Source: a virus (taxonomy: Duplodnaviria; Heunggongvirae; Uroviricota; Caudoviricetes). Taken from it: a stretch of DNA of 64,000 nucleotides. Of the stretch, positions 3,001 through 35,490 are shown piece after piece; the stretch's first letter is position 1, and each line of letters opens with the position of its first letter. The translations under genes were made by a program, and so were the position numbers. The notes below the pieces were generated by a model. The model did no database searches. It worked only from the letters and a program-made list of their open reading frames with translations, and was not told where the DNA came from. Where the stretch lies: the IMG/VR virus record IMGVR_UViG_3300006143_000275; one strand, given 5' to 3'.

Positions 3001-6000
3001 AAAAGGGCTCCGTGACAGTGTTATCTATGAACAATTTCTGAGAATGGACACTTCTGCAATCAAAACGGCAGAGGGATTGTCACAATTCAGGGAAGAATTG
3101 ATAGACACAGTGGAATCCAGCAGAGACCTAAAGGATGCCATGAGTAATGGTGATATTAATATTGATAACATTACAAATGGCGTCGATGATCTGCTGGCTG
3201 TGCATTTTCCAGAACTGTTTAATCAGTTACGTCAATATGAACTGTATGAACAACAGCTTAATGATCTTGCTAATAAGCTGGTAGATAAGTCTGATGAGCC
3301 CGGCTATTCATCTTGGAATCCGGACGATCATTTTGCTGCCATTAAGTCTTTGTATGAAAAGCGAAATGAAATCAAGGATCAGCTTCGAAATCTATCAGAA
3401 GAGGATTTTGTGATTGCTGTTAAGGCTATTACAGAAGACGGAGCTACGTCTTGGGATGAAGTTCTTAATGCGATTGCTGCCTATAATGACGAACAAGTGG
3501 TTGCCGCAAGAAGAACAGAAGAATTGCGGCAGCAAATCAGCACTCTATGGAAGTCCGAATCGTTTACAGAGGCAAAGTCCGAGTTAGTATCTTTACTTAG
3601 TTCCCTTGGAGAAATTTCACCTGACAAAATTGAGGAGCTTGCTGACAGTAGTTTTGAACTTGCGTCTATCCTCGAACAGGATGGAATGAATGCGCAGTTC
3701 TTATCCGTTATTTTGACGAATCTTGCAAACGGTGGGGATGGTATCAGTCTCATTACAACGGAGGCTCTGGCGCTCAACAAGGTCCTTGATGGCATGGTTG
3801 GTGAGTTTGATAAGGTTACTGATGCAAAAGCGAGATACGACGCCGCTATGTATGTTGAAGAAAAGGATACTGACTTCAAATCCTATGCCGCTGCTTTTGA
3901 GGAACTGAACAAGCAGTTTGAGGCTGGCACAACCAACTCAAACAGGTTCTGGGCCGCTGCGGAATTCCTGTTTGGTAGCGAACAGCTTGCCGCTTGGGGC
4001 TGGAGCGATGGACTGGATGAAATCTATGAGTCCATGAAACGCAGCGAATCTATCTTTTCTGATGCGGATAGCGCGGGTGCCGGTTTTATCGAGAGACTAT
4101 ACGAAATGTCGGAAGCCGGCAAGATGGTCAATGAGCAGGGTGAAAAACTGCTTGAGATCAGCAAAGATTCGCATGGTGCTTATATCTTCGATATTGACCA
4201 GGAAAATATTGCTGCTATTGCAGAGAAGATGGGACTCACAGAGGAGGCCGTTCTGTCGTGCCTTGAAGCGCTGTCTATGTGGGGCGACATTGACTTCTTC
4301 AATATTGATGAGGTGCTTAAGAAAATCGAGGATCTCGGCATTGTTATGGATAGCTGTGCAGACGATGCGGAGGAACTTGGCGGTAAGGTCATCAATCTGG
4401 ACAGACTTACTGAGCAGCTCTTGACCCTCGGAAAGACAGAAAAAGAAATCTACGATATTACCACTGCTCTGTCCGGTCTTGACAATGTGAGTTTTATCAG
4501 TGTGACACAGGACGCAAACAATCTGGTTGAAGTGCTGGATCAACTTGGCGTCGTTACAAAAGACGGAATCAATATCTCCATTGATTATGAGGGATTCGGC
4601 GATATCCTTCAGACGCTTGGGTTTACGAAGGACGAGGCTGAGAGCCTTATCACGAAACTCGGCGAGGTTGACAACATATCTCTGACAAATGCAGATGGGG
4701 AGATCAAGGATGTTAGTGACGCGCTTGATTACATTCGCGGTCTGGAGTTTACCGATGTTACTGCAAGCGTAGATGGTATTGGGAACGCTATTGACGAAGT
4801 TGACGATCAATCAACGGAGAATGTTGTCTCTGAAATTGAGAATATTGGCAATGCGGCAGATTCTGCGGTAACGAAGATATACTCTATTGGGGATGCAGTT
4901 TCAGACATTGACGGCAAGACCGCAACGGTCTACTATGATGTCAGAAAGAAAAACAACGTGCTTGGTTCTCTTGGCAGTATCCTTGGGTTTGCAAACGGTA
5001 CAGATGGAGCTCCTGCCGGTCCGGCGCTTGTAGGTGAGGAAGACCCAGAGCTTATCAAGTCCGGGAAAGAAGCATATCTGGCTGGTGTAAACGGACCGGA
5101 GATCGTTGACCTTAACGAGGGAGACCAGGTATATAATGCTGACGAGACAAAGAAGATACTCCGTGGTTCCGGTAAGCATATCCTTGGCTCTGTCCCCGCC
5201 TTTGAGGGTGGTGCGCATGGCGGTCTTGTCATCAACAAGGATAAGGAGGGCACATACGGCAAGCCATATTCTCCAAGCGCAGAAGTCGAAGTGAAGGCAA
5301 CAGTTGATGACAAGGAACTGGAAGACGCGCTTGAGGACGCACTGAAAAAGCTCAAAGAAGAATTGAGTGAAATCATTGGAAACTTTGAGCACTCTATTTT
5401 CCTCTTGGAGAAAAACGGTGGAAGTGCAGATCAGATTGTCGCAATCTATCGCAAGATGCAGGAGACCGTACATGAGTACGCGGAAAAGTATCGTGCGATG
5501 GGTCTTGATGAAAATTCCGACTATATCCAGGAACTCCAGAAACAGTGGTGGAATTATCAGGATAGCATTCAGAAAACGATTGTTGATAATTTTGAGAAGA
5601 TGGCCGGCGAACGCGAGAACGCCATCAAGCTGACAGAAAACTGGATGGAAGACGCTATGGACAAGGGATTCCATCCTGGCGTTGCCGGATATGCAAACGA
5701 TATTGTAGATTACTACAAACGGATGCAGGAGATCATCCATGAGCAGGCGGAATATTACAGGTCTCAGGGGTACGCCGACACCAGCGATGAGGTCAGCAAA
5801 CTCAGTGATTTGTGGTGGGACTATGCGCAAAAGATTAAGGATGTCAGAGATGATGTTGTTGATAATTTGCTGGATATGGTCGATGCCGCATCTGACCTTG
5901 TGGACAAGGTGCAGAGTGTGTACGATACACTGCATGACGCAGCGGACGAATATGCGTCAAATGGCGGTTTTATATCCGTAGATACACTCCAGTCTATTTA

Positions 6001-16263: not shown

Positions 16264-17094
16264 ATGGCTAAAGTAGCATTTAAGAAAGGGCTTCTGGCAA
16301 ATCTTCCCGAGGCCATTTCTGAGGGCACTTTTTACATCACTACCGATGAGCACGCCATGTACCTGGATGTAGACGGTACTACCCGTGTGCGTATCGGTGA
16401 TTTTCAGGAGTTTGCCACCCTGACAGCCCTACAGGCGAATACGAATCCCAGCACAACCGCTCTATACTATGTGACTGAGCTGAATTGCCTTGCCAAGTGG
16501 GACAGCACCAAGTATGTTCAGATTAACCTGGACACTGGTGCTACCAGTGTTGAAACCACTGGTGCGGGTAACGCCCTGGACGGTGTGACCTATGACCCTG
16601 CTACCCGCAAGCTGACCTTTACCAAGGCCAAGACCTTCGTCACAGCCGCCGATGTGGACGCTCAGATTGCGGCTAAGGTGGGTGAGCTGAAGATTGGTGA
16701 CGAAACCTTCGCCACCGTTAAGGCATATGTGGACAAGAAGACCGACGGCATCGCCACTGATGCTGCGTTGGAGGACTTGACCAAGCGTGTGACTACTGCA
16801 GAGGGTAAGATGGACACGCTGATTGGTGACGATGCCGACAAGTCCGCCCGCACTATCGCCAATGAGGAACTGGCAAAGCAGCTCATCCCAGAGAACGCCA
16901 AGGAATCTTTGGATACTCTGGCTGAGATTGCCGCATGGATTCAGGCACATCCAGATGACGCCACCGCCATGAATAAGGCAATTACCGACCTGGCGGCCCT
17001 GGTGGGTACTCTGCCCGAAGATGCTACCGCAACTGACGTTGTAGCGTATATCAAGGAGTACGCCGATGAAGCGATGACCTGGGGAGCATTCTAA
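16264..17094 (+). CDS. Tail fibre protein
   Basis: Similar N-terminus to the previous gene (FKKG...GTFYITTDEHAMYL), fibre motif SLDTLAEIAAWI, ends MTWGAF. Confidence 0.65.
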   Translation: MAKVAFKKGLLANLPEAISEGTFYITTDEHAMYLDVDGTTRVRIGDFQEFATLTALQANTNPSTTALYYVTELNCLAKWDSTKYVQINLDTGATSVETTGAGNALDGVTYDPATRKLTFTKAKTFVTAADVDAQIAAKVGELKIGDETFATVKAYVDKKTDGIATDAALEDLTKRVTTAEGKMDTLIGDDADKSARTIANEELAKQLIPENAKESLDTLAEIAAWIQAHPDDATAMNKAITDLAALVGTLPEDATATDVVAYIKEYADEAMTWGAF

Positions 17095-17119
17095 TCTCGG
17101 ATAAACAAACAGCGAATAG

Positions 17120-17150
17120 AGGGGTGGGCCTGCGGGTCTGCCCCTTTTAT
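17120..17150 (+). terminator. Rho-independent terminator
   Basis: AGGGGTGGGCC-TGCG-GGTCTGCCCCT followed by TTTAT. Confidence 0.6.
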
Positions 17151-17183
17151 CAAACTCAGACTCAAGATGAGGAGGGTTAATCT

Positions 17184-17609
17184 ATGCTTTTCAAAATTTT
17201 GCAGGGTGATAGCTCTCGCATCTCGACAGATATCACTCCGCTCCATCCAGGTTGGTGTTACTTTACACCAGACGATGGACGACTGTATATCGATTCCGCA
17301 GATGATGATGGAAGCAATCCGAAGCGTACCTGTATCAACCCAAACAGCAGCGGAGCCAGCGTTGCAGTTAGAGGAACGCTAACAAAGAATGGTTGGGTTA
17401 GCGGCCAACAGATTTTACTTGTGAACGGCTTGCGTGCCGAACATAATGGCGTAATTGGCGTTGCTCAGGAAATTACTGACTCTCAGATGGAGGCGGCCAA
17501 AGGTGCAGAATTGTATGTGTGCAACCAAGTAGATGGCGCTCTAACGGTTGCTGTTTTCGGAGATACTCCGCAGATCGATATTCCTGTGGTCACCATCCTG
17601 CTGGCCTAA
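17184..17609 (+). CDS. Tail fibre adaptor protein
   Basis: Mtd_N-like N-terminus (GWCYFTPDDGRLYIDS). C-terminal domain is paralogous to that of the next gene. Confidence 0.6.
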   Translation: MLFKILQGDSSRISTDITPLHPGWCYFTPDDGRLYIDSADDDGSNPKRTCINPNSSGASVAVRGTLTKNGWVSGQQILLVNGLRAEHNGVIGVAQEITDSQMEAAKGAELYVCNQVDGALTVAVFGDTPQIDIPVVTILLA

Positions 17610-17625
17610 ACGGGGGTGGACATAT

Positions 17626-18030
17626 ATGAGTGGAACAACAAACTATGATCTCCATTTGACAGACGACAGCACGGAGAAGTTTCGAGAATGGCGCAGAGCC
17701 ATGAATGGACCGGACAATTCCAACATGGTCAAGATTGACAACATTCTTGGCATGAAAGCGGACAGCAGCGTGTGTATTTCCTGCACGCTGCTTGCTTCTG
17801 CATGGGCAGGTCTCGATTCTCCATTCGTGCAAACATTGTATGTTGATGGACTCGGCCAGTCGCAGAACGGAACAATCAATGTGGCGCAAAATGCGACTTT
17901 TGAGCAACGAAAAATGGCACGCGAAGCAATGCTCTCTGTCACTGGTCAGGCGGATGGGGAACTTATCATCTCAGCGGACGGAGAAATGCCGGATATTGAT
18001 ATTCCCGTCCAAATTATTCTGATCGGATAA
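17626..18030 (+). CDS. Tail fibre adaptor protein
   Basis: Start revised to ATG 17626 (SD GGGGTGG). C-terminal domain ends DIDIPVQIILIG, against QIDIPVVTILLA in the upstream paralogue. Confidence 0.6.
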   Translation: MSGTTNYDLHLTDDSTEKFREWRRAMNGPDNSNMVKIDNILGMKADSSVCISCTLLASAWAGLDSPFVQTLYVDGLGQSQNGTINVAQNATFEQRKMAREAMLSVTGQADGELIISADGEMPDIDIPVQIILIG

Positions 18031-18089
18031 TTACATAACGGCTGCGTCATTTGGCGATCAGCTGCACGAAGATACAAGGGAGGTTTTAT

Positions 18090-20354
18090 ATGCCTATTAT
18101 CTCTAATTTTCCAGGCGGCTCCGGAAGCGGTGGCGGAGGTCTGGCTTTGGCTGCCGCGACCGGCATCAAGACCGTAACATCGCATGAGAAGGTCTATATT
18201 CAGTGGACAGATCCGGAGGACCTTGTGGTGGCTGGTTCCACCCTGGCGTCCTGGGGAGGTACTCTGTTGGTGCGGAAAGCCGGTTCTATGCCCGTGAGCC
18301 GTCGTGACGGCGTTATCGTACTGGACAGCAAAACGCGTGACGCATATAAAACGGCGTATTTCTGCGACAGTGGGCTGACTGATGGAACAACCTACTACTA
18401 CAAACTCTTCCCGTATACCACGGCAAATTCCTACACAGACGTTGAGGATGGTGGCTTCTCCGCCACGCCCAATCCTGTTGCGCTTGGCAACGTAAGTGGT
18501 ATTAGTGCATCAGCCGCAGGCAATGGGAAAATCAGTGTGAAATGGACTGATCCGGCATCCACTGTCGTAACAGACGGTATCACTGTTGCTACATGGGCGA
18601 ATACGACCATTGTGGTGAAGACCGGATCATACGCAACTAGCCCGGATGACAGCGGAGCTGATGTTGCATTCCGTCAGGTGGTGAACACACGCAATCAGTA
18701 CGCAAGCAACCCACTGACTATCACAGGATTGACGAATGGGATGACCTACTACATCTCGTTCTTCCCTGCGTCCACAGATGGCGCTGTGAATACCAACACA
18801 GCCAACCGCACGACCGGTGTTCCGAACCGTCTTGTGATTAGTACCGTACCGTCTCAAAGCGGATCACTGACCTATAATACAAACCCACAAAATCCAAGCT
18901 GGAGCGGATATGATTCTACGAAGATGGTGCTGTCAGGAGAAACTGTCGGTACGAATGCTAAAACATATACCGCCACTTTTACACCGAAGGATGACTACGT
19001 TTGGTCTGGAGACACCGAGCCAAAGGCAAAAAATGTAGCCTGGACAATCGGCAAGGCGACCGGAACGATGACAATTTCCCCACTCTCAATCACACTGAAT
19101 AAGACCGCTACAAGTGCCACTTTTGTTATTTCTGGTAACTTTGACGGTTCTTATTCTGTTGTGTCACAGAACACGGGAATCGCAACTGTCGCACTGGCGA
19201 GTGGAAAAACCTACCGCGTCAGCAGTGTGAATAGTGCAACAGGCAATACCACTATCAAGGTTACCTGCTCTGGTGGAAGCAACTACACTATCCCAGCCGC
19301 CCAGTCGGTAAGTGTGACAGCTAAGTTTGTAACCATTTATGGCGCATCTTGGGATGGTTCCAGTACGACAAAGTGGTCTCGTACCGACGCCTCCGCGAGC
19401 TTCACCGATCCCGTTCCTGCCGTGAACAACGGCAGCGGCAGTTCTCCTTTTGATAATTTGCTGCCATGGTCCGGGATGACAAAGAGCAATCGTACTGGCG
19501 GTGTTGTTGTTGCTATTCCTAAGTTCTGGTACAAGTGGACAAAGAGCGGAAATACACTGAAGCTCCAAATCGCAGATGGAGAAACGGACGGCTTCAAGGT
19601 ATCCCCCGCTCATGCAAACAGAGGAGACGGAAAGGGTGAGCGAGATGTAGTCTATGTCGGGCGATATCATTGCGCAAGCGGTTATAAGAGCACCACTGGC
19701 GTTGCCCAACAGGTGAGTATTACCCGGTCTGCCGCACGTACAGGTATTCATAATTTGGGTGCAACCATTTGGCAGTTCGACTATGCCATGCGTGTGACCA
19801 TCCAAATGCTCTATCTGGTGGAGTTCGCAGACTGGAACTCTCAGGCGAAGATCGGATATGGCTGTTCCGCAAGTGGCTCCAAGGAGAACAACGGGAAAAC
19901 GGACGCTATGAAGTACCACACTGGCACCACAGCAGCTAACCGTACTACATACGGCTATACGCAGTACCGCAATATTGAGGGATTGTGGGATAACGTGTAC
20001 GACTGGATGGACGGATGCTACTACAACAGCAATGGTATGTACGTTATCAATACCCCGTCTGCGTTCAGTGATTCCTCTGGTGGGTCTCTAATCGGGAAGC
20101 CGTCAAACGGCTGGCCATCTGCTATTGCGGTGTCTACCGTAAGTGGCCTTGAGTGGGCGATCTATCCTACGGCTGCAAGTGGTTCTGAGAGCACATACGT
20201 CGCGGATGGCTGGGTCTATTACGCTTCCGTCCCGTGCCTGTGCTGTGGGGGTGGCTGCGACCAGGGCCAGGGCCGCGGGTTGTTCTGCGTGAGCTGCGGC
20301 GGGGCGTCGGGCACGGGCTCGGGCGTCGGCTGCCGCCTCCAAGAACTCCCCTAA
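18090..20354 (+). CDS. DGR target: receptor-binding tail protein with FN3/Ig-like domains and C-terminal C-type-lectin (Mtd/FGE-like) domain
   Basis: Start revised to ATG 18090 (SD GGGAGG). Two FN3-like repeats (WTDP...YYYKLFPY; WTDP...YYISFFP), CLec motif YRNIEGLWDNVYDWMDG, VR in the last ~50 codons. Confidence 0.9.
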   Translation: MPIISNFPGGSGSGGGGLALAAATGIKTVTSHEKVYIQWTDPEDLVVAGSTLASWGGTLLVRKAGSMPVSRRDGVIVLDSKTRDAYKTAYFCDSGLTDGTTYYYKLFPYTTANSYTDVEDGGFSATPNPVALGNVSGISASAAGNGKISVKWTDPASTVVTDGITVATWANTTIVVKTGSYATSPDDSGADVAFRQVVNTRNQYASNPLTITGLTNGMTYYISFFPASTDGAVNTNTANRTTGVPNRLVISTVPSQSGSLTYNTNPQNPSWSGYDSTKMVLSGETVGTNAKTYTATFTPKDDYVWSGDTEPKAKNVAWTIGKATGTMTISPLSITLNKTATSATFVISGNFDGSYSVVSQNTGIATVALASGKTYRVSSVNSATGNTTIKVTCSGGSNYTIPAAQSVSVTAKFVTIYGASWDGSSTTKWSRTDASASFTDPVPAVNNGSGSSPFDNLLPWSGMTKSNRTGGVVVAIPKFWYKWTKSGNTLKLQIADGETDGFKVSPAHANRGDGKGERDVVYVGRYHCASGYKSTTGVAQQVSITRSAARTGIHNLGATIWQFDYAMRVTIQMLYLVEFADWNSQAKIGYGCSASGSKENNGKTDAMKYHTGTTAANRTTYGYTQYRNIEGLWDNVYDWMDGCYYNSNGMYVINTPSAFSDSSGGSLIGKPSNGWPSAIAVSTVSGLEWAIYPTAASGSESTYVADGWVYYASVPCLCCGGGCDQGQGRGLFCVSCGGASGTGSGVGCRLQELP
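20199..20340 (+). repeat. DGR variable region (VR)
   Basis: Aligns without gaps to 20541-20682: 31 mismatches at TR adenines and 2 at non-A positions. Confidence 0.96.
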
Positions 20355-20364
20355 GAGAGGGGTT

Positions 20365-20388
20365 TGGGGAGAACCGCAGTTCTCCCCA
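20365..20388 (+). promoter_or_regulatory. DGR target-recognition hairpin/cruciform downstream of VR/IMH
   Basis: TGGGGAGAAC-CGCA-GTTCTCCCCA, a perfect 10-bp stem about 25 nt after the VR, the position known for DGR homing hairpins. Confidence 0.8.
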
Positions 20389-20414
20389 TCCAGTAGCCAA
20401 GTAAACAATGTAAA

Positions 20415-20440
20415 AGGGGACGTGCGCAAGTACGTCCCCT
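20415..20440 (+). other. Second GC-rich hairpin with GNRA loop between target and TR
   Basis: AGGGGACGTGC-GCAA-GTACGTCCCCT (11 bp with one G-T pair). Confidence 0.6.
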
Positions 20441-20540
20441 AAATCGAATCATTCCTATTTTTAGTAAAGCAAACAAGAAGCGCATTTTATGTGCGCTACG
20501 GGATTGCCTACGCAGCAGTCGCTGGTTCATTTATTGTGCC

Positions 20541-20682
20541 GTCGCGGATAACTGGAACTATAACGCTTCCAACCCGTGCCTGCACTGTGGGGGTAACTAC
20601 AACCAGAACCAGAACCACGGGTTGTTCTACGTGAACTACAACAGTGCGTCGAACACGAACTCGAACATCGGCTGCCGCATCC
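20541..20682 (+). repeat. DGR template region (TR)
   Basis: Non-coding AAC-rich copy of VR (13 AAC codons in the VR frame), ending GGCTGCCGC before the IMH* divergence. Confidence 0.96.
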
Positions 20683-20922
20683 TTGTTTTTCGCTGGGCCT
20701 CACCAGAGGTTCCGGGCGAGTGCGTGGTTAGCATTATTTTTGGTAGATCGGGCTCCTCACCCTTTCTATAAGGGCTGTGGTGCGTATTTCGCACTACACC
20801 CTTGGCGCGGGCAATCGCGTGCCCCTTGGCAAAGATTAACCGATAGGACATGGGTTAGTACCCTCTGAGAAACCGGAGCGTGGGAAAGCTCATGAGGTTA
20901 CAAGGAGGTACTGTAACAACCT
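20683..20922 (+). ncRNA. Probable structured DGR-RNA spacer (Sp) between TR and RT
   Basis: 240-nt non-coding interval with several stem-loops and the segment CCCTTGGCAAAGATT...GGTTAGTA, which resembles DGR spacer motifs. Boundaries are inferred. Confidence 0.5.
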
Positions 20923-22038
20923 ATGAAACGTACAAAAAATCTATACGAGAAACTCATTTCACACGACAACCTGATGCTTGCCCTCGTGGAGGTAAACACG
21001 AGTCACAGGTGGCTGCCGAAACACAGGCCAAACAAAACGGTCGCATGGATTGAACAGGATATGGAGGCGCGTGTAGAGGATCTGCGCCATATCATCGAGC
21101 AGATCGTATATCATAAGCGCCAGCTCTCCAAGCCGAAGCAGAAGCAGCGGTATGATAAGAGCGCCGGAAAATGGCGTATCATCAACGAACCAAAGCTGTG
21201 GCCGGATCAATATATACACCATGCGCTTGTGCAGGTTCTCCAACCAACCATGATGCGTGGAATGGACAGGCATTGCTGTGGTAGTATCCGCAATCGTGGC
21301 ATTCACTACGGAAAGAAGAAAATTGAGAAGTGGATGGACACGGATGTTAGAGGGACCAAATACTGCGAAGAACTCGACATCCATCATTTCTACGACAGCA
21401 TTGATCCAGGGTTCATTTTGATACGGTTGCGCCACCTCATCAAAGATTGGCGCGTATTGAAGGTATGCGAGGAAGTCCTACGGTACGGCGTACTGATTGG
21501 CCTATACACCTCGCAGTGGTTCGCAAATACGCTTCTACAGCCACTCGACCAGCTCATCAGAGACAGCGGATTCTGCACCCACTATCTCAGATACATGGAC
21601 AATTTCACAATCTTTGGAAGTAACAAAAGGAAACTGCACAGGCTGAGAAAGCTAATTGAAGAATGGCTTGCGGGAGTCAATCTCTCTTTGAAAGACAACT
21701 GGCAGGTGTTCCCCACAAGGAGCCGTATGCCATGCGCACTCGGCTACAGGTTCGGCAGAAGGTTCACATTGCTCAAGAAGCGCAATCTGTTCCGTCTAAA
21801 ACGGAAGCTGAACGAGTATTACCGCCGCAAAAGGCAGCACAGAAAAATATCCGCCAGAATGGCGACTGGGCTGATTTCAAGATTGGGTCAGCTCAAACAT
21901 TGCAACAATAAAAACATCTATGAAAAAATCTATCACGGCAAGGTTCAAAAGGAACTGAAACAAGTGATTCGAAATCATATGCGAGAGGAGAGATTAACGT
22001 GGAGTATGTATTTGGAGCAAATGGCTACAGCGGCGTAG
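20923..22038 (+). CDS. DGR reverse transcriptase (YMDN active-site variant)
   Basis: 371 aa, basic. Motif A LDIHHFYDSI, DGR signature IGLYTSQ, catalytic motif RYMDNF (tac atg gac aat ttc). Confidence 0.93.
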   Translation: MKRTKNLYEKLISHDNLMLALVEVNTSHRWLPKHRPNKTVAWIEQDMEARVEDLRHIIEQIVYHKRQLSKPKQKQRYDKSAGKWRIINEPKLWPDQYIHHALVQVLQPTMMRGMDRHCCGSIRNRGIHYGKKKIEKWMDTDVRGTKYCEELDIHHFYDSIDPGFILIRLRHLIKDWRVLKVCEEVLRYGVLIGLYTSQWFANTLLQPLDQLIRDSGFCTHYLRYMDNFTIFGSNKRKLHRLRKLIEEWLAGVNLSLKDNWQVFPTRSRMPCALGYRFGRRFTLLKKRNLFRLKRKLNEYYRRKRQHRKISARMATGLISRLGQLKHCNNKNIYEKIYHGKVQKELKQVIRNHMREERLTWSMYLEQMATAA

Positions 22039-22283
22039 AAACTCTCCGTACCAAAGGGAGCGAGCACACCGATTTTGAGGGGTTCGCGGAGGTGGTACAG
22101 GAATACGATGACAGCACCATCACAGACACCTTCCACGTCATCCAGAAGACAAAATTCGATGAGGATGCGGAAGGCAACTGCTATGATTGGTATGAAATCG
22201 ACCATCACAACCGCATCGTTGATAAGACGAAGCGCATGAAAGCGAATATGGCTGTGCTGGTCGCATCCATTTTGGAGGGCTAA
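21999..22283 (+). CDS. Acidic hypothetical protein overlapping the RT stop by 40 nt
   Basis: 94-aa ORF with SD GGAGAG and a downstream SD for the next gene. Does not resemble the helical, basic Avd. Confidence 0.65.
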   Translation: MEYVFGANGYSGVETLRTKGSEHTDFEGFAEVVQEYDDSTITDTFHVIQKTKFDEDAEGNCYDWYEIDHHNRIVDKTKRMKANMAVLVASILEG

Positions 22284-34800: not shown

Positions 34801-35490
34801 TTACTCCTTCCTCGGCATCAAGCCGCAGGTGTATCGTTCCTTACAGAAGCCCATATACTTGCACTTCGGCACAAAATAATGTCCAACAACGTACTTCCAC
34901 TCTTCGGAATAGTTGGACAGAGCATCACACAGATCGTTGAACAGTTTCCGGTATTCATGATACGCCCTCTTACACATCCTCTGATGGGACATATCAATGA
35001 GGTTTCGCATGTTATGCTTACACACGATTTTGGTCGTCATACCAAGCGGAAGAGCAAGTGCTGAATCCTCTCGTGGTATCCCAAGTTCGTCAAGGTCTTT
35101 CAGACCATCTTCGATAGATGCCATGATATTTGCATAGATATCGCCAGCAGTGGTATTCTCCCGAATGCTGAGCGGAGTTACAAAATCAAAGCCATGCTCA
35201 TAGTCGATGTACCGTGTACTTGCCTGAAGGCGAGTTGGGGAACCGCCAATATGCGTATACCACTCACGAATAACGCGGGCAGAATACCCATCCAGAATCA
35301 TATAGACATCCGGAAATTCGAATGTTCTCCCGTGCTCACTTTCAAGACAATCAATCCCGCGCTTGTAGTTTTTCTTGTCGTCACTGGTGTCTGCTCCCCA
35401 GCAGCATCCAGCTTCCTTTCCAATCATTGTGATTGGGGTTTTGCTTGTAAATTCATCCTGAATAATGACTTTGCTCATATGTATCCTCAA
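34801..35490 (-). CDS. thyX: FAD-dependent thymidylate synthase
   Basis: HGRTFEF, ARVIREWYTH...LQASTRY, EDSALALP, NMRNL. Confidence 0.8.
   Translation of the reverse strand: MRIHMSKVIIQDEFTSKTPITMIGKEAGCCWGADTSDDKKNYKRGIDCLESEHGRTFEFPDVYMILDGYSARVIREWYTHIGGSPTRLQASTRYIDYEHGFDFVTPLSIRENTTAGDIYANIMASIEDGLKDLDELGIPREDSALALPLGMTTKIVCKHNMRNLIDMSHQRMCKRAYHEYRKLFNDLCDALSNYSEEWKYVVGHYFVPKCKYMGFCKERYTCGLMPRKE

Follow-up and report, generated by a model that had tools for sequence, protein, structure and literature searches.

A 64,000-nucleotide stretch of DNA from a phage of the class Caudoviricetes (IMG/VR record IMGVR_UViG_3300006143_000275), hereafter the window, contains an active diversity-generating retroelement (DGR). 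The phage-borne DGR consists of a gene for a tail protein with a predicted C-type-lectin fold, a variable region (VR) at the end of this gene, a hairpin, a template repeat (TR), an RT-18 RNA and a reverse transcriptase (RT) with a YMDN motif, without Avd. The VR of the window differs from the TR by an extreme excess of A>G changes. Overall, the locus is judged to be an ordinary phage DGR, though Avd-less and YxDN-type, with an unusual haplotype whose skew is neither an enzyme property nor an assembly artefact.

Organization of the DGR locus

The DGR locus comprises the following features (nt, nucleotides; aa, amino acids; ORF, open reading frame).

18090–20354, + strand: DGR target gene for a tail-fibre-like variable protein of the phage; the reading frame is open from 18051, and the start placed at ~18090 by gene callers gives 754 aa (range 754–767 aa)
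20198–20340, + strand: VR of 143 nt, located by direct-repeat comparison, coding for the last 47 residues of the target; 17 distinct haplotypes are found at this site
20327–20340, + strand: G+C-rich 3′ end of the VR, similar to an initiation of mutagenic homing (IMH) site, with C at 20337 where the TR has A; the IMH/IMH* assignment is made by analogy with phage BPP-1
20365–20388, + strand: perfect 10-bp hairpin with a 4-nt loop, 24 nt 3′ of the VR; region z-score −5.9
20415–20440, + strand: second hairpin with an 11-bp stem in the VR–TR spacer; terminator-like by pattern scan on the minus strand only
20540–20682, + strand: TR with 39 adenines and 13 AAC codons
20820–20907, + strand: RT-18 RNA motif (Rfam RF03021) lying after the TR and ahead of the RT gene; score 77.6 bits, gathering threshold 41.3
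20923–22038, + strand: DGR RT of 371 aa with motif C YMDN and signature IGLYTSQ; RVT_1 E-value 2.5e-13
21999–22283, + strand: 94-aa ORF from the ORF list that overlaps the end of the RT gene; it has no Pfam match and is not Avd

The VR and TR form the one 143-nt direct repeat identified by the repeat search (20198–20340 and 20540–20682; offset 342; 77% identity). A second target for the same TR was ruled out, as the TR has a single VR partner in the 139-kb IMG/VR record. The locus displays TR/VR differences that are confined to adenines apart from two described below, a DGR-type RT and a C-terminal VR in a protein modelled with a C-type-lectin fold. The RT combines an RVT_1 match with the DGR signature [I/V/L]GxxxSQ as defined in PMC7826257. 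At the 3′ side of the VR, the G+C-rich VR end with its fixed TR/VR difference is followed by the 10-bp hairpin, as predicted for target recognition, and the hairpin is by analogy a candidate DGR target-recognition stem-loop. No sigma-70-like promoter was detected in the VR–TR–RT spacer by a promoter scan, and the 5-kb cassette has no near match in the phage GenBank collection.

Motif C of the RT is YMDN in place of the canonical YxDD. Y[M/I]DN is carried by each of the 67 viral relatives that are ≥45% identical; the genome relatives, which come from Oscillospiraceae-type Clostridia, carry it too, with one exception (NMDN). Because the motif is conserved across the clade to 45% identity and the clade is active, its sequence reads as a variant motif and not a lesion. 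The string YMDN was not found in the DGR literature searched. RT-18 occupies the same place in all nine YxDN-clade loci tested and in one YMDD locus (L066), and a different Rfam RNA, RT-17, replaces it upstream of more distant YxDD/FADD RTs (L074, L114 and L133). Avd (PF05635) has no match anywhere in the 139-kb record, and the neighbouring small ORFs lack Pfam matches; the accessory-protein test covered Avd only, and HRDC was not searched.

The target protein has no Pfam match and no PDB match using a 47-sequence profile, and it was identified only via a fold search. The last 300 residues were modelled by AlphaFold2 (AF2) with a supplied alignment of 47 clade targets and gave a mean predicted local distance difference test (pLDDT) value of 92.5. 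The best PDB match of this 300-residue end is the DGR variable protein TaqVP (5vf4; Foldseek E-value 1e-8, template modelling score 0.59, 14% identity), followed by formylglycine-generating enzymes (FGE), Mtd and TvpA. In the model, the end of the target adopts the C-type-lectin fold typical of DGR variable proteins, with the VR at the C-terminus.

Base changes in the window VR and its siblings

An ungapped, base-by-base recount of the 143 nt assigned the 39 TR adenines to 27 A>G, 3 A>T, 1 A>C and 8 unchanged positions in the VR, exactly as tallied in an earlier note on this DNA. Adenines constitute 27% of the TR and account for 31 of the 33 VR/TR mismatches (P ~9e-16). Eight of the 13 AAC codons are converted to GGC and all three TAC codons to TGC, and the 47-residue VR peptide contains 13 Gly and 7 Cys residues; the codon changes and the Cys count were likewise given correctly in the note. 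Its list of differences, accurate for the adenines, omitted two non-adenine changes, C>T at 20241 and T>G at 20303. The T>G change lies at a third codon position (TR AGT to VR GGG), is silent given the adjacent A>G and is unique to the window haplotype; it probably arose as a simple RT error or by point mutation at a later time. The A>C change that the note placed at the IMH edge is indeed present, at VR position 20337, but it occurs in 17 of 17 copies. It is a fixed IMH-type TR/VR boundary difference, not mutagenesis, and the mutagenic count is therefore 27 G, 3 T and 0 C over 38 adenines.

Many mouse-gut contigs carry sibling copies of the element, recognized by the identical RT protein and by the gene that precedes the target. 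Seventeen VR haplotypes, including that of the window, were obtained: 14 from contigs with an identical TR, one from contig L157, which ends before the TR, and two from runs (one shared by the cultured isolates X15 and X17, the other from the rat sample X13). The TR is 100% identical in all copies where it was recovered, while the VR differs. Contig L150 is the same as the window over 16500–22030 (5.5 kb) except for 23 differences, every one of which lies inside the VR, and four further copies differ from the window by 1–2 bases outside the VR. The copies are otherwise near-identical, and the 754-aa target gene is called in identical copies. The invariant TR, the near-identical flanks and the varying VR establish that the element is diversifying in nature.

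Over the 38 mutable adenines, the 16 siblings together contain 331 A, 182 G, 94 T and 1 C, corresponding to a pooled rate of 0.456 and substitution shares of 0.657 for G, 0.34 for T and 0.004 for C. Ordinary events change about 45% of the adenines, ∼30% to G, ∼15% to T and almost none to C. The siblings carry 4, 7, 7, 7, 7, 10, 10, 10, 10, 11, 12, 14, 16, 16, 17 and 24 G, and the window carries 27. On the sibling frequencies, the probability of at least 27 G at 38 sites is 2e-7 in a binomial model and <1e-6 with site-specific G frequencies; for the rat haplotype X13, with 24 G, it is 1.4e-5. The haplotypes are heterogeneous in the G channel only (G vs A, p 4e-7; T vs A, p 0.84), and those remaining are nearly homogeneous once the window and X13 are removed (p 0.057). 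A>T changes of the siblings are concentrated at the first A of AAC (71 of 94), and the second A of the 13 AAC codons (NAC context) shows A>C at 0 of 208 sites in 16 haplotypes. Four adenines are constant in 17 of 17 haplotypes (TR positions 9, 21, 66 and 72; 20548, 20560, 20605 and 20611), in a GAT, a TAT and two CAG codons. Their constancy is due to a structural constraint, with Asp252 invariant in the target alignment, or else to fidelity that depends on context.

The 5′ part of the window VR (positions ≤33) is sibling-like, with 4 G, 3 T and 3 A. The 3′ part (positions 45–128; 20242–20325) contains 23 G, 0 T and 5 A, and two of these five A are constant in all copies. G occupies approximately 88% of the mutable adenine positions in the 3′ two-thirds, and T occupies none. 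X13 has the same layout, with 20 G, 0 T and 8 A in the 3′ part, and the other 15 haplotypes have 4–14 G there. Given the T share of the siblings, the absence of T among the 43 3′-part substitutions has a probability of 9e-7. The odds of G:(A+T) are 7.7 in the window, 3.3 in X13 and 0.5 normally. The layout suggests that two homing events contributed to the VR, joined at a crossover near positions 34–44. The window and X13 have 17 G positions in common against ∼16 expected from their densities, which supports neither shared descent nor convergence of the two hyper-G haplotypes.

The spectrum of the wider YxDN clade was obtained with an adenine-tolerant TR/VR detector run on 135 viral and genome loci. 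The 59 distinct TR/VR pairs of the clade have a rate of 0.42 (0.22–0.69) and substitution shares of 0.64 G, 0.32 T and 0.04 C, and the 41 distinct pairs of the YxDD relatives have a rate of 0.66 (0.33–0.88) and shares of 0.62 G, 0.23 T and 0.16 C. The spectra of the two groups, a comparison that the earlier note had proposed for YMDN and YMDD DGRs, are thus alike in G share and differ in A>C and rate. A>C is depleted to 4% of substitutions in the clade, compared with 16% in the YxDD relatives (odds ratio 0.21, p 8e-19). The predominance of G is common to both groups, and the features specific to the clade are the near-absence of A>C and the lower rate. None of the 59 clade pairs exceeds a rate of 69%, and none reaches the 79% of the window; in a beta-binomial fit to the clade, the rate of the window has P 3e-5 and its G count P 5e-5. 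Heterogeneity across the clade is again seen for G vs A (p 4e-4), with T vs A at p 0.69.

Two further deviations were noted among the copies. In L155:7298–8286, a near-identical copy from an ENA assembly of mouse gut, the RT gene was predicted as two separate pieces (260 and 59 aa), and this copy is possibly a lineage with a broken RT. L081–L085, L153 and L154 differ from the window by a cluster of ∼45–90 substitutions in the middle of the target gene (∼18930–18960 and scattered sites over 17429–18956) with identical TR and RT; the cluster looks like a recombination patch in the tail-fibre shaft.

Origin of the hyper-G haplotype

Identical TR and RT sequences yield ordinary variants in 15 of the 16 other haplotypes, and the skew is therefore not built into the enzyme. 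The window VR is a genuine single haplotype that forms an extreme outlier of the output of the same TR and RT. Its skew is thus likely to stem not from the enzyme but from the history of the haplotype itself, with either the homing event or subsequent selection as its source. The candidate causes of the hyper-G haplotypes are the dNTP-pool state, selection and RNA editing.

In the proposed mechanism, the TR RNA with the adjacent RT-18 RNA would be copied by the YMDN RT with miscopying of adenines, and the resulting cDNA would replace the VR at the end of the tail protein. In one homing event covering TR positions ≥45, dCTP would have out-competed dTTP and dATP opposite adenine, and the resulting hyper-G variant would then not have been removed by selection. 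A cell with a high dCTP:dTTP ratio would favour such an event. The dNTP pools may differ between lysogenic and lytic cells, and the phage-encoded ThyX (flavin-dependent thymidylate synthase; 98.6 bits; ∼34918–35433, − strand) may bear on them; ThyA and the dCMP/cytidine-deaminase family PF00383 were not found in the 139-kb phage record. Simple dNTP competition fits the data because T/(A+T) is constant among haplotypes. For the Bordetella RT (bRT) opposite A, kcat hardly differs between correct and incorrect dNTPs and the Km for TTP is raised, such that the outcome follows dNTP supply (PMC7826257). The dNTP-pool state is put forward as a plausible but tentative cause of the hyper-G haplotype. 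A further reading, in which mutagenesis has two discrete modes, is possible but somewhat doubtful; the normal mode would give ∼30% G and ∼15% T, and a rare hyper-G mode, represented by 2 of 17 haplotypes from mouse and rat, would turn almost all mutable adenines of the 3′ two-thirds to G and none to T.

Several points weigh against a genuine haplotype produced by an altered dNTP supply. The VRs are known from assembled contigs, not reads, which places minority variants and per-molecule spectra out of view, and run X1, which reproduces the window haplotype, may be the source sample itself. The ∼7- to 15-fold shift in the odds of G:(A+T) is large for a pool effect, and the 5′/3′ mosaic is based on few sites (P ~0.009 for three T). 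Moreover, selection clearly shapes the VRs and could alone favour Gly-rich variants, and the pattern is also what would be expected from A-to-I change of the TR RNA.

The action of selection is evident from the non-adenine changes. C>T accounts for 23 of the 29 non-adenine differences in the clade. C is changed at 20 of 220 sites in the CA[C/T] context and at 3 of 2359 other sites, without any reverse T>C, and the YxDD outgroup shows C>T at 0 of 72 CA[C/T] sites. When the sites are split by codon phase with the siblings included, C>T is found at 28 of 128 first bases of His codons but at 1 of 172 silent third positions in the same context (p 1e-10). The clade loci with His-codon C>T are L004, L007, L008, L013, L016, L018, L021–L023, L030, L033, L037, L041, L095–L097 and L101. 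In the element itself, 9 of 17 haplotypes have T at TR position 44 (TR 20583/VR 20241). Most simply, these changes are rare non-adenine errors that yield Tyr, Phe or Cys and are strongly enriched by selection, which effectively broadens the repertoire of a CAC codon from three to six residues. Three other accounts were rejected. A mutational hot spot as the main cause is contradicted by the rarity of change at silent third positions in the same context (1 of 172), re-reading of the neighbouring A would also yield A and G at these sites, neither of which is seen, and retention of an ancestral T at position 44 by partial homing is inconsistent with the nine T haplotypes, which differ on both sides and are not identical by descent. 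The VRs seen in nature have thus already been filtered from the RT output, and a single VR is a weaker basis for inferring enzyme bias.

Selection could also account for the hyper-G haplotypes themselves, if ordinary mutagenesis was followed by enrichment of a face rich in Gly, Cys and small residues (for another receptor or for escape) or by unselected persistence in a lysogen. The His-codon bias, the near-fixation of Tyr-giving T at some sibling sites (position 56 in 12 of 16) and the recovery of hyper-G haplotypes from two hosts, mouse and rat, agree with this explanation. With regard to the modelling of the Gly/Cys-rich VR proposed in the earlier note, the AF2 model also retains a confident VR (pLDDT 92.5 over the last 300 aa), although the result is alignment-driven. 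However, at a per-site G frequency of ∼0.3, a haplotype with 23 G at 28 sites would arise in ∼4e-8 of events, which demands an enormous variant pool. No specific selected pattern is visible in the G positions common to the window and X13, and T is wholly absent rather than lowered at particular sites. Selection, one of the causes suggested in the note, acts strongly on the VRs but is only a possible, and rather unlikely, origin of the G excess.

RNA editing is improbable. Here, an adenosine deaminase of the host or of a defence system would convert TR RNA adenines to inosine ahead of reverse transcription, and inosine would be read faithfully as G. This predicts near-complete A>G, no T and an unchanged T/(A+T), and it would make hyper-G a discrete mode, in keeping with the gap between 14 and 20 in the 3′-part G counts. 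The four never-changed adenines nevertheless stay A in the window also, and the PF00383 deaminase family is absent from the 139-kb phage record. To our knowledge, no bacterial enzyme edits long mRNA stretches in this manner, which further counts against editing.

An intrinsic bias of the YMDN RT, in which the Asn of motif C drives very frequent incorporation of dC opposite A, was another suggestion of the note and is very improbable. Y[M/I]DN is conserved through a large, active clade with its own spectrum (A>C 4% vs 16%; rate 0.42 vs 0.66), but the identical RT and TR yield 15 ordinary haplotypes, and the 16 other haplotypes pool to a rate of 46% with 66% G. The G share of the clade (0.64) is close to that of the YxDD relatives (0.62), its rate is lower, not higher, and the most comparable hyper-G VR elsewhere (L133) has an FADD enzyme.

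An assembly artefact, the third suggestion, in which the VR would be a majority-vote or chimeric path through a diversified population, is scarcely credible: the record is a metagenome-derived viral contig and sample X1 holds related phages that break the assembly graph around the TR, but majority voting over the siblings yields 26 A, 6 G and 6 T, a chimeric sequence can be no more extreme than the parents that it averages, a second hyper-G haplotype lies on a 9.8-kb rat-sample contig, and an independent Logan contig from run X1, which is assembler-independent but not sample-independent, matches window positions 19800–20373 with 0 differences and no alternative VR letters at a depth of 27.8.

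Implications and comparison with known systems

The usual basis for a DGR spectrum is a single TR/VR pair from each genome, whereas one element was sampled 17 times here. A single pair can lie far from the true spectrum of the enzyme, and natural VRs are strongly filtered by selection; a G skew in one VR should therefore not be attributed to the enzyme. The natural spectrum of the Avd-less YxDN/RT-18 clade, with G ∼2:1 over T, virtually no C and a rate below that of the YxDD relatives, provides a baseline for characterizing a YxDN enzyme or adapting it to targeted diversification. If hyper-G is a distinct mutational mode, host or phage nucleotide metabolism would be linked to hypermutation output. 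If it is mutational, through a dNTP supply that depends on cell state and is influenced by the phage ThyX or through A-to-I change of the template RNA, the physiological state of the host would set the sequence space that the DGR explores.

The element resembles the DGR of Bordetella phage BPP-1 (mtd VR/avd/TR/brt) in being phage-borne with a C-type-lectin-fold receptor-binding protein that carries a 3′ VR. Both also have an AAC-rich TR, adenine-specific changes, a G+C-rich VR end with a hairpin 3′ of it, the IGxxxSQ signature in the RT and a structured RNA that separates the TR from the RT gene. Unlike BPP-1, the element has no Avd, its motif C is YMDN instead of YMDD, and its structured RNA is RT-18. 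Purified bRT-Avd misinserts dA (22%), dC (18%) and dG (12%) opposite A, with a total of 52% and a per-site range of 30–76% (PMC7826257); this in vitro order of A>T, A>G and A>C differs from the G-then-T order of the siblings. In E. coli, dC accounts for 59% of bRT misinsertions, a result for which the dCTP pool was invoked, and dG is high only in NAC contexts (26.8%; PMC12875486). As with bRT in that study, A>T is concentrated at the first A of AAC and gives Tyr, but the element shows A>C at 0 of 208 second A positions of AAC, the NAC context in which bRT inserts dG, and the error profile of this RT clade is in that respect clearly different.

Bacteroides DGRs are, like this element, gut DGRs, and amplicon sequencing showed that their variable positions mostly carry A, followed by G and T and rarely by C, an order also found in the siblings (bioRxiv 2024.11.15.621889). 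In vivo A>G predominance and a G-then-T, rare-C spectrum are thus already known (PMC12875486; bioRxiv 2024.11.15.621889). The part of the preprint consulted describes no hyper-G subpopulation. The Bacteroides DGRs differ in RT clade and have Avd, pilus-adhesin targets and Bacteroidota hosts, as opposed to the tail protein and Oscillospiraceae-type Clostridia here. Thermus aquaticus TaqVP (PDB 5vf4) shares the C-type-lectin/FGE-like fold and the C-terminal VR predicted for the target; it is a cellular protein with 14% identity, whereas the target is a phage protein with a long N-terminal tail-fibre part.

The closest parallel to the window haplotype is the DGR of L133, a complete Ihubacter isolate genome (VR 3451–3585, TR 3695–3829; FADD RT, RT-17 RNA). 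Its RT is only 30% identical, its RNA is RT-17 and A>C is present, unlike in the window. Its VR is similarly saturated and G-skewed: of 43 adenines, 38 are changed, to G (32), T (4) or C (2). Hyper-G VRs of this kind therefore exist in a complete isolate genome, here with an unrelated RT clade.

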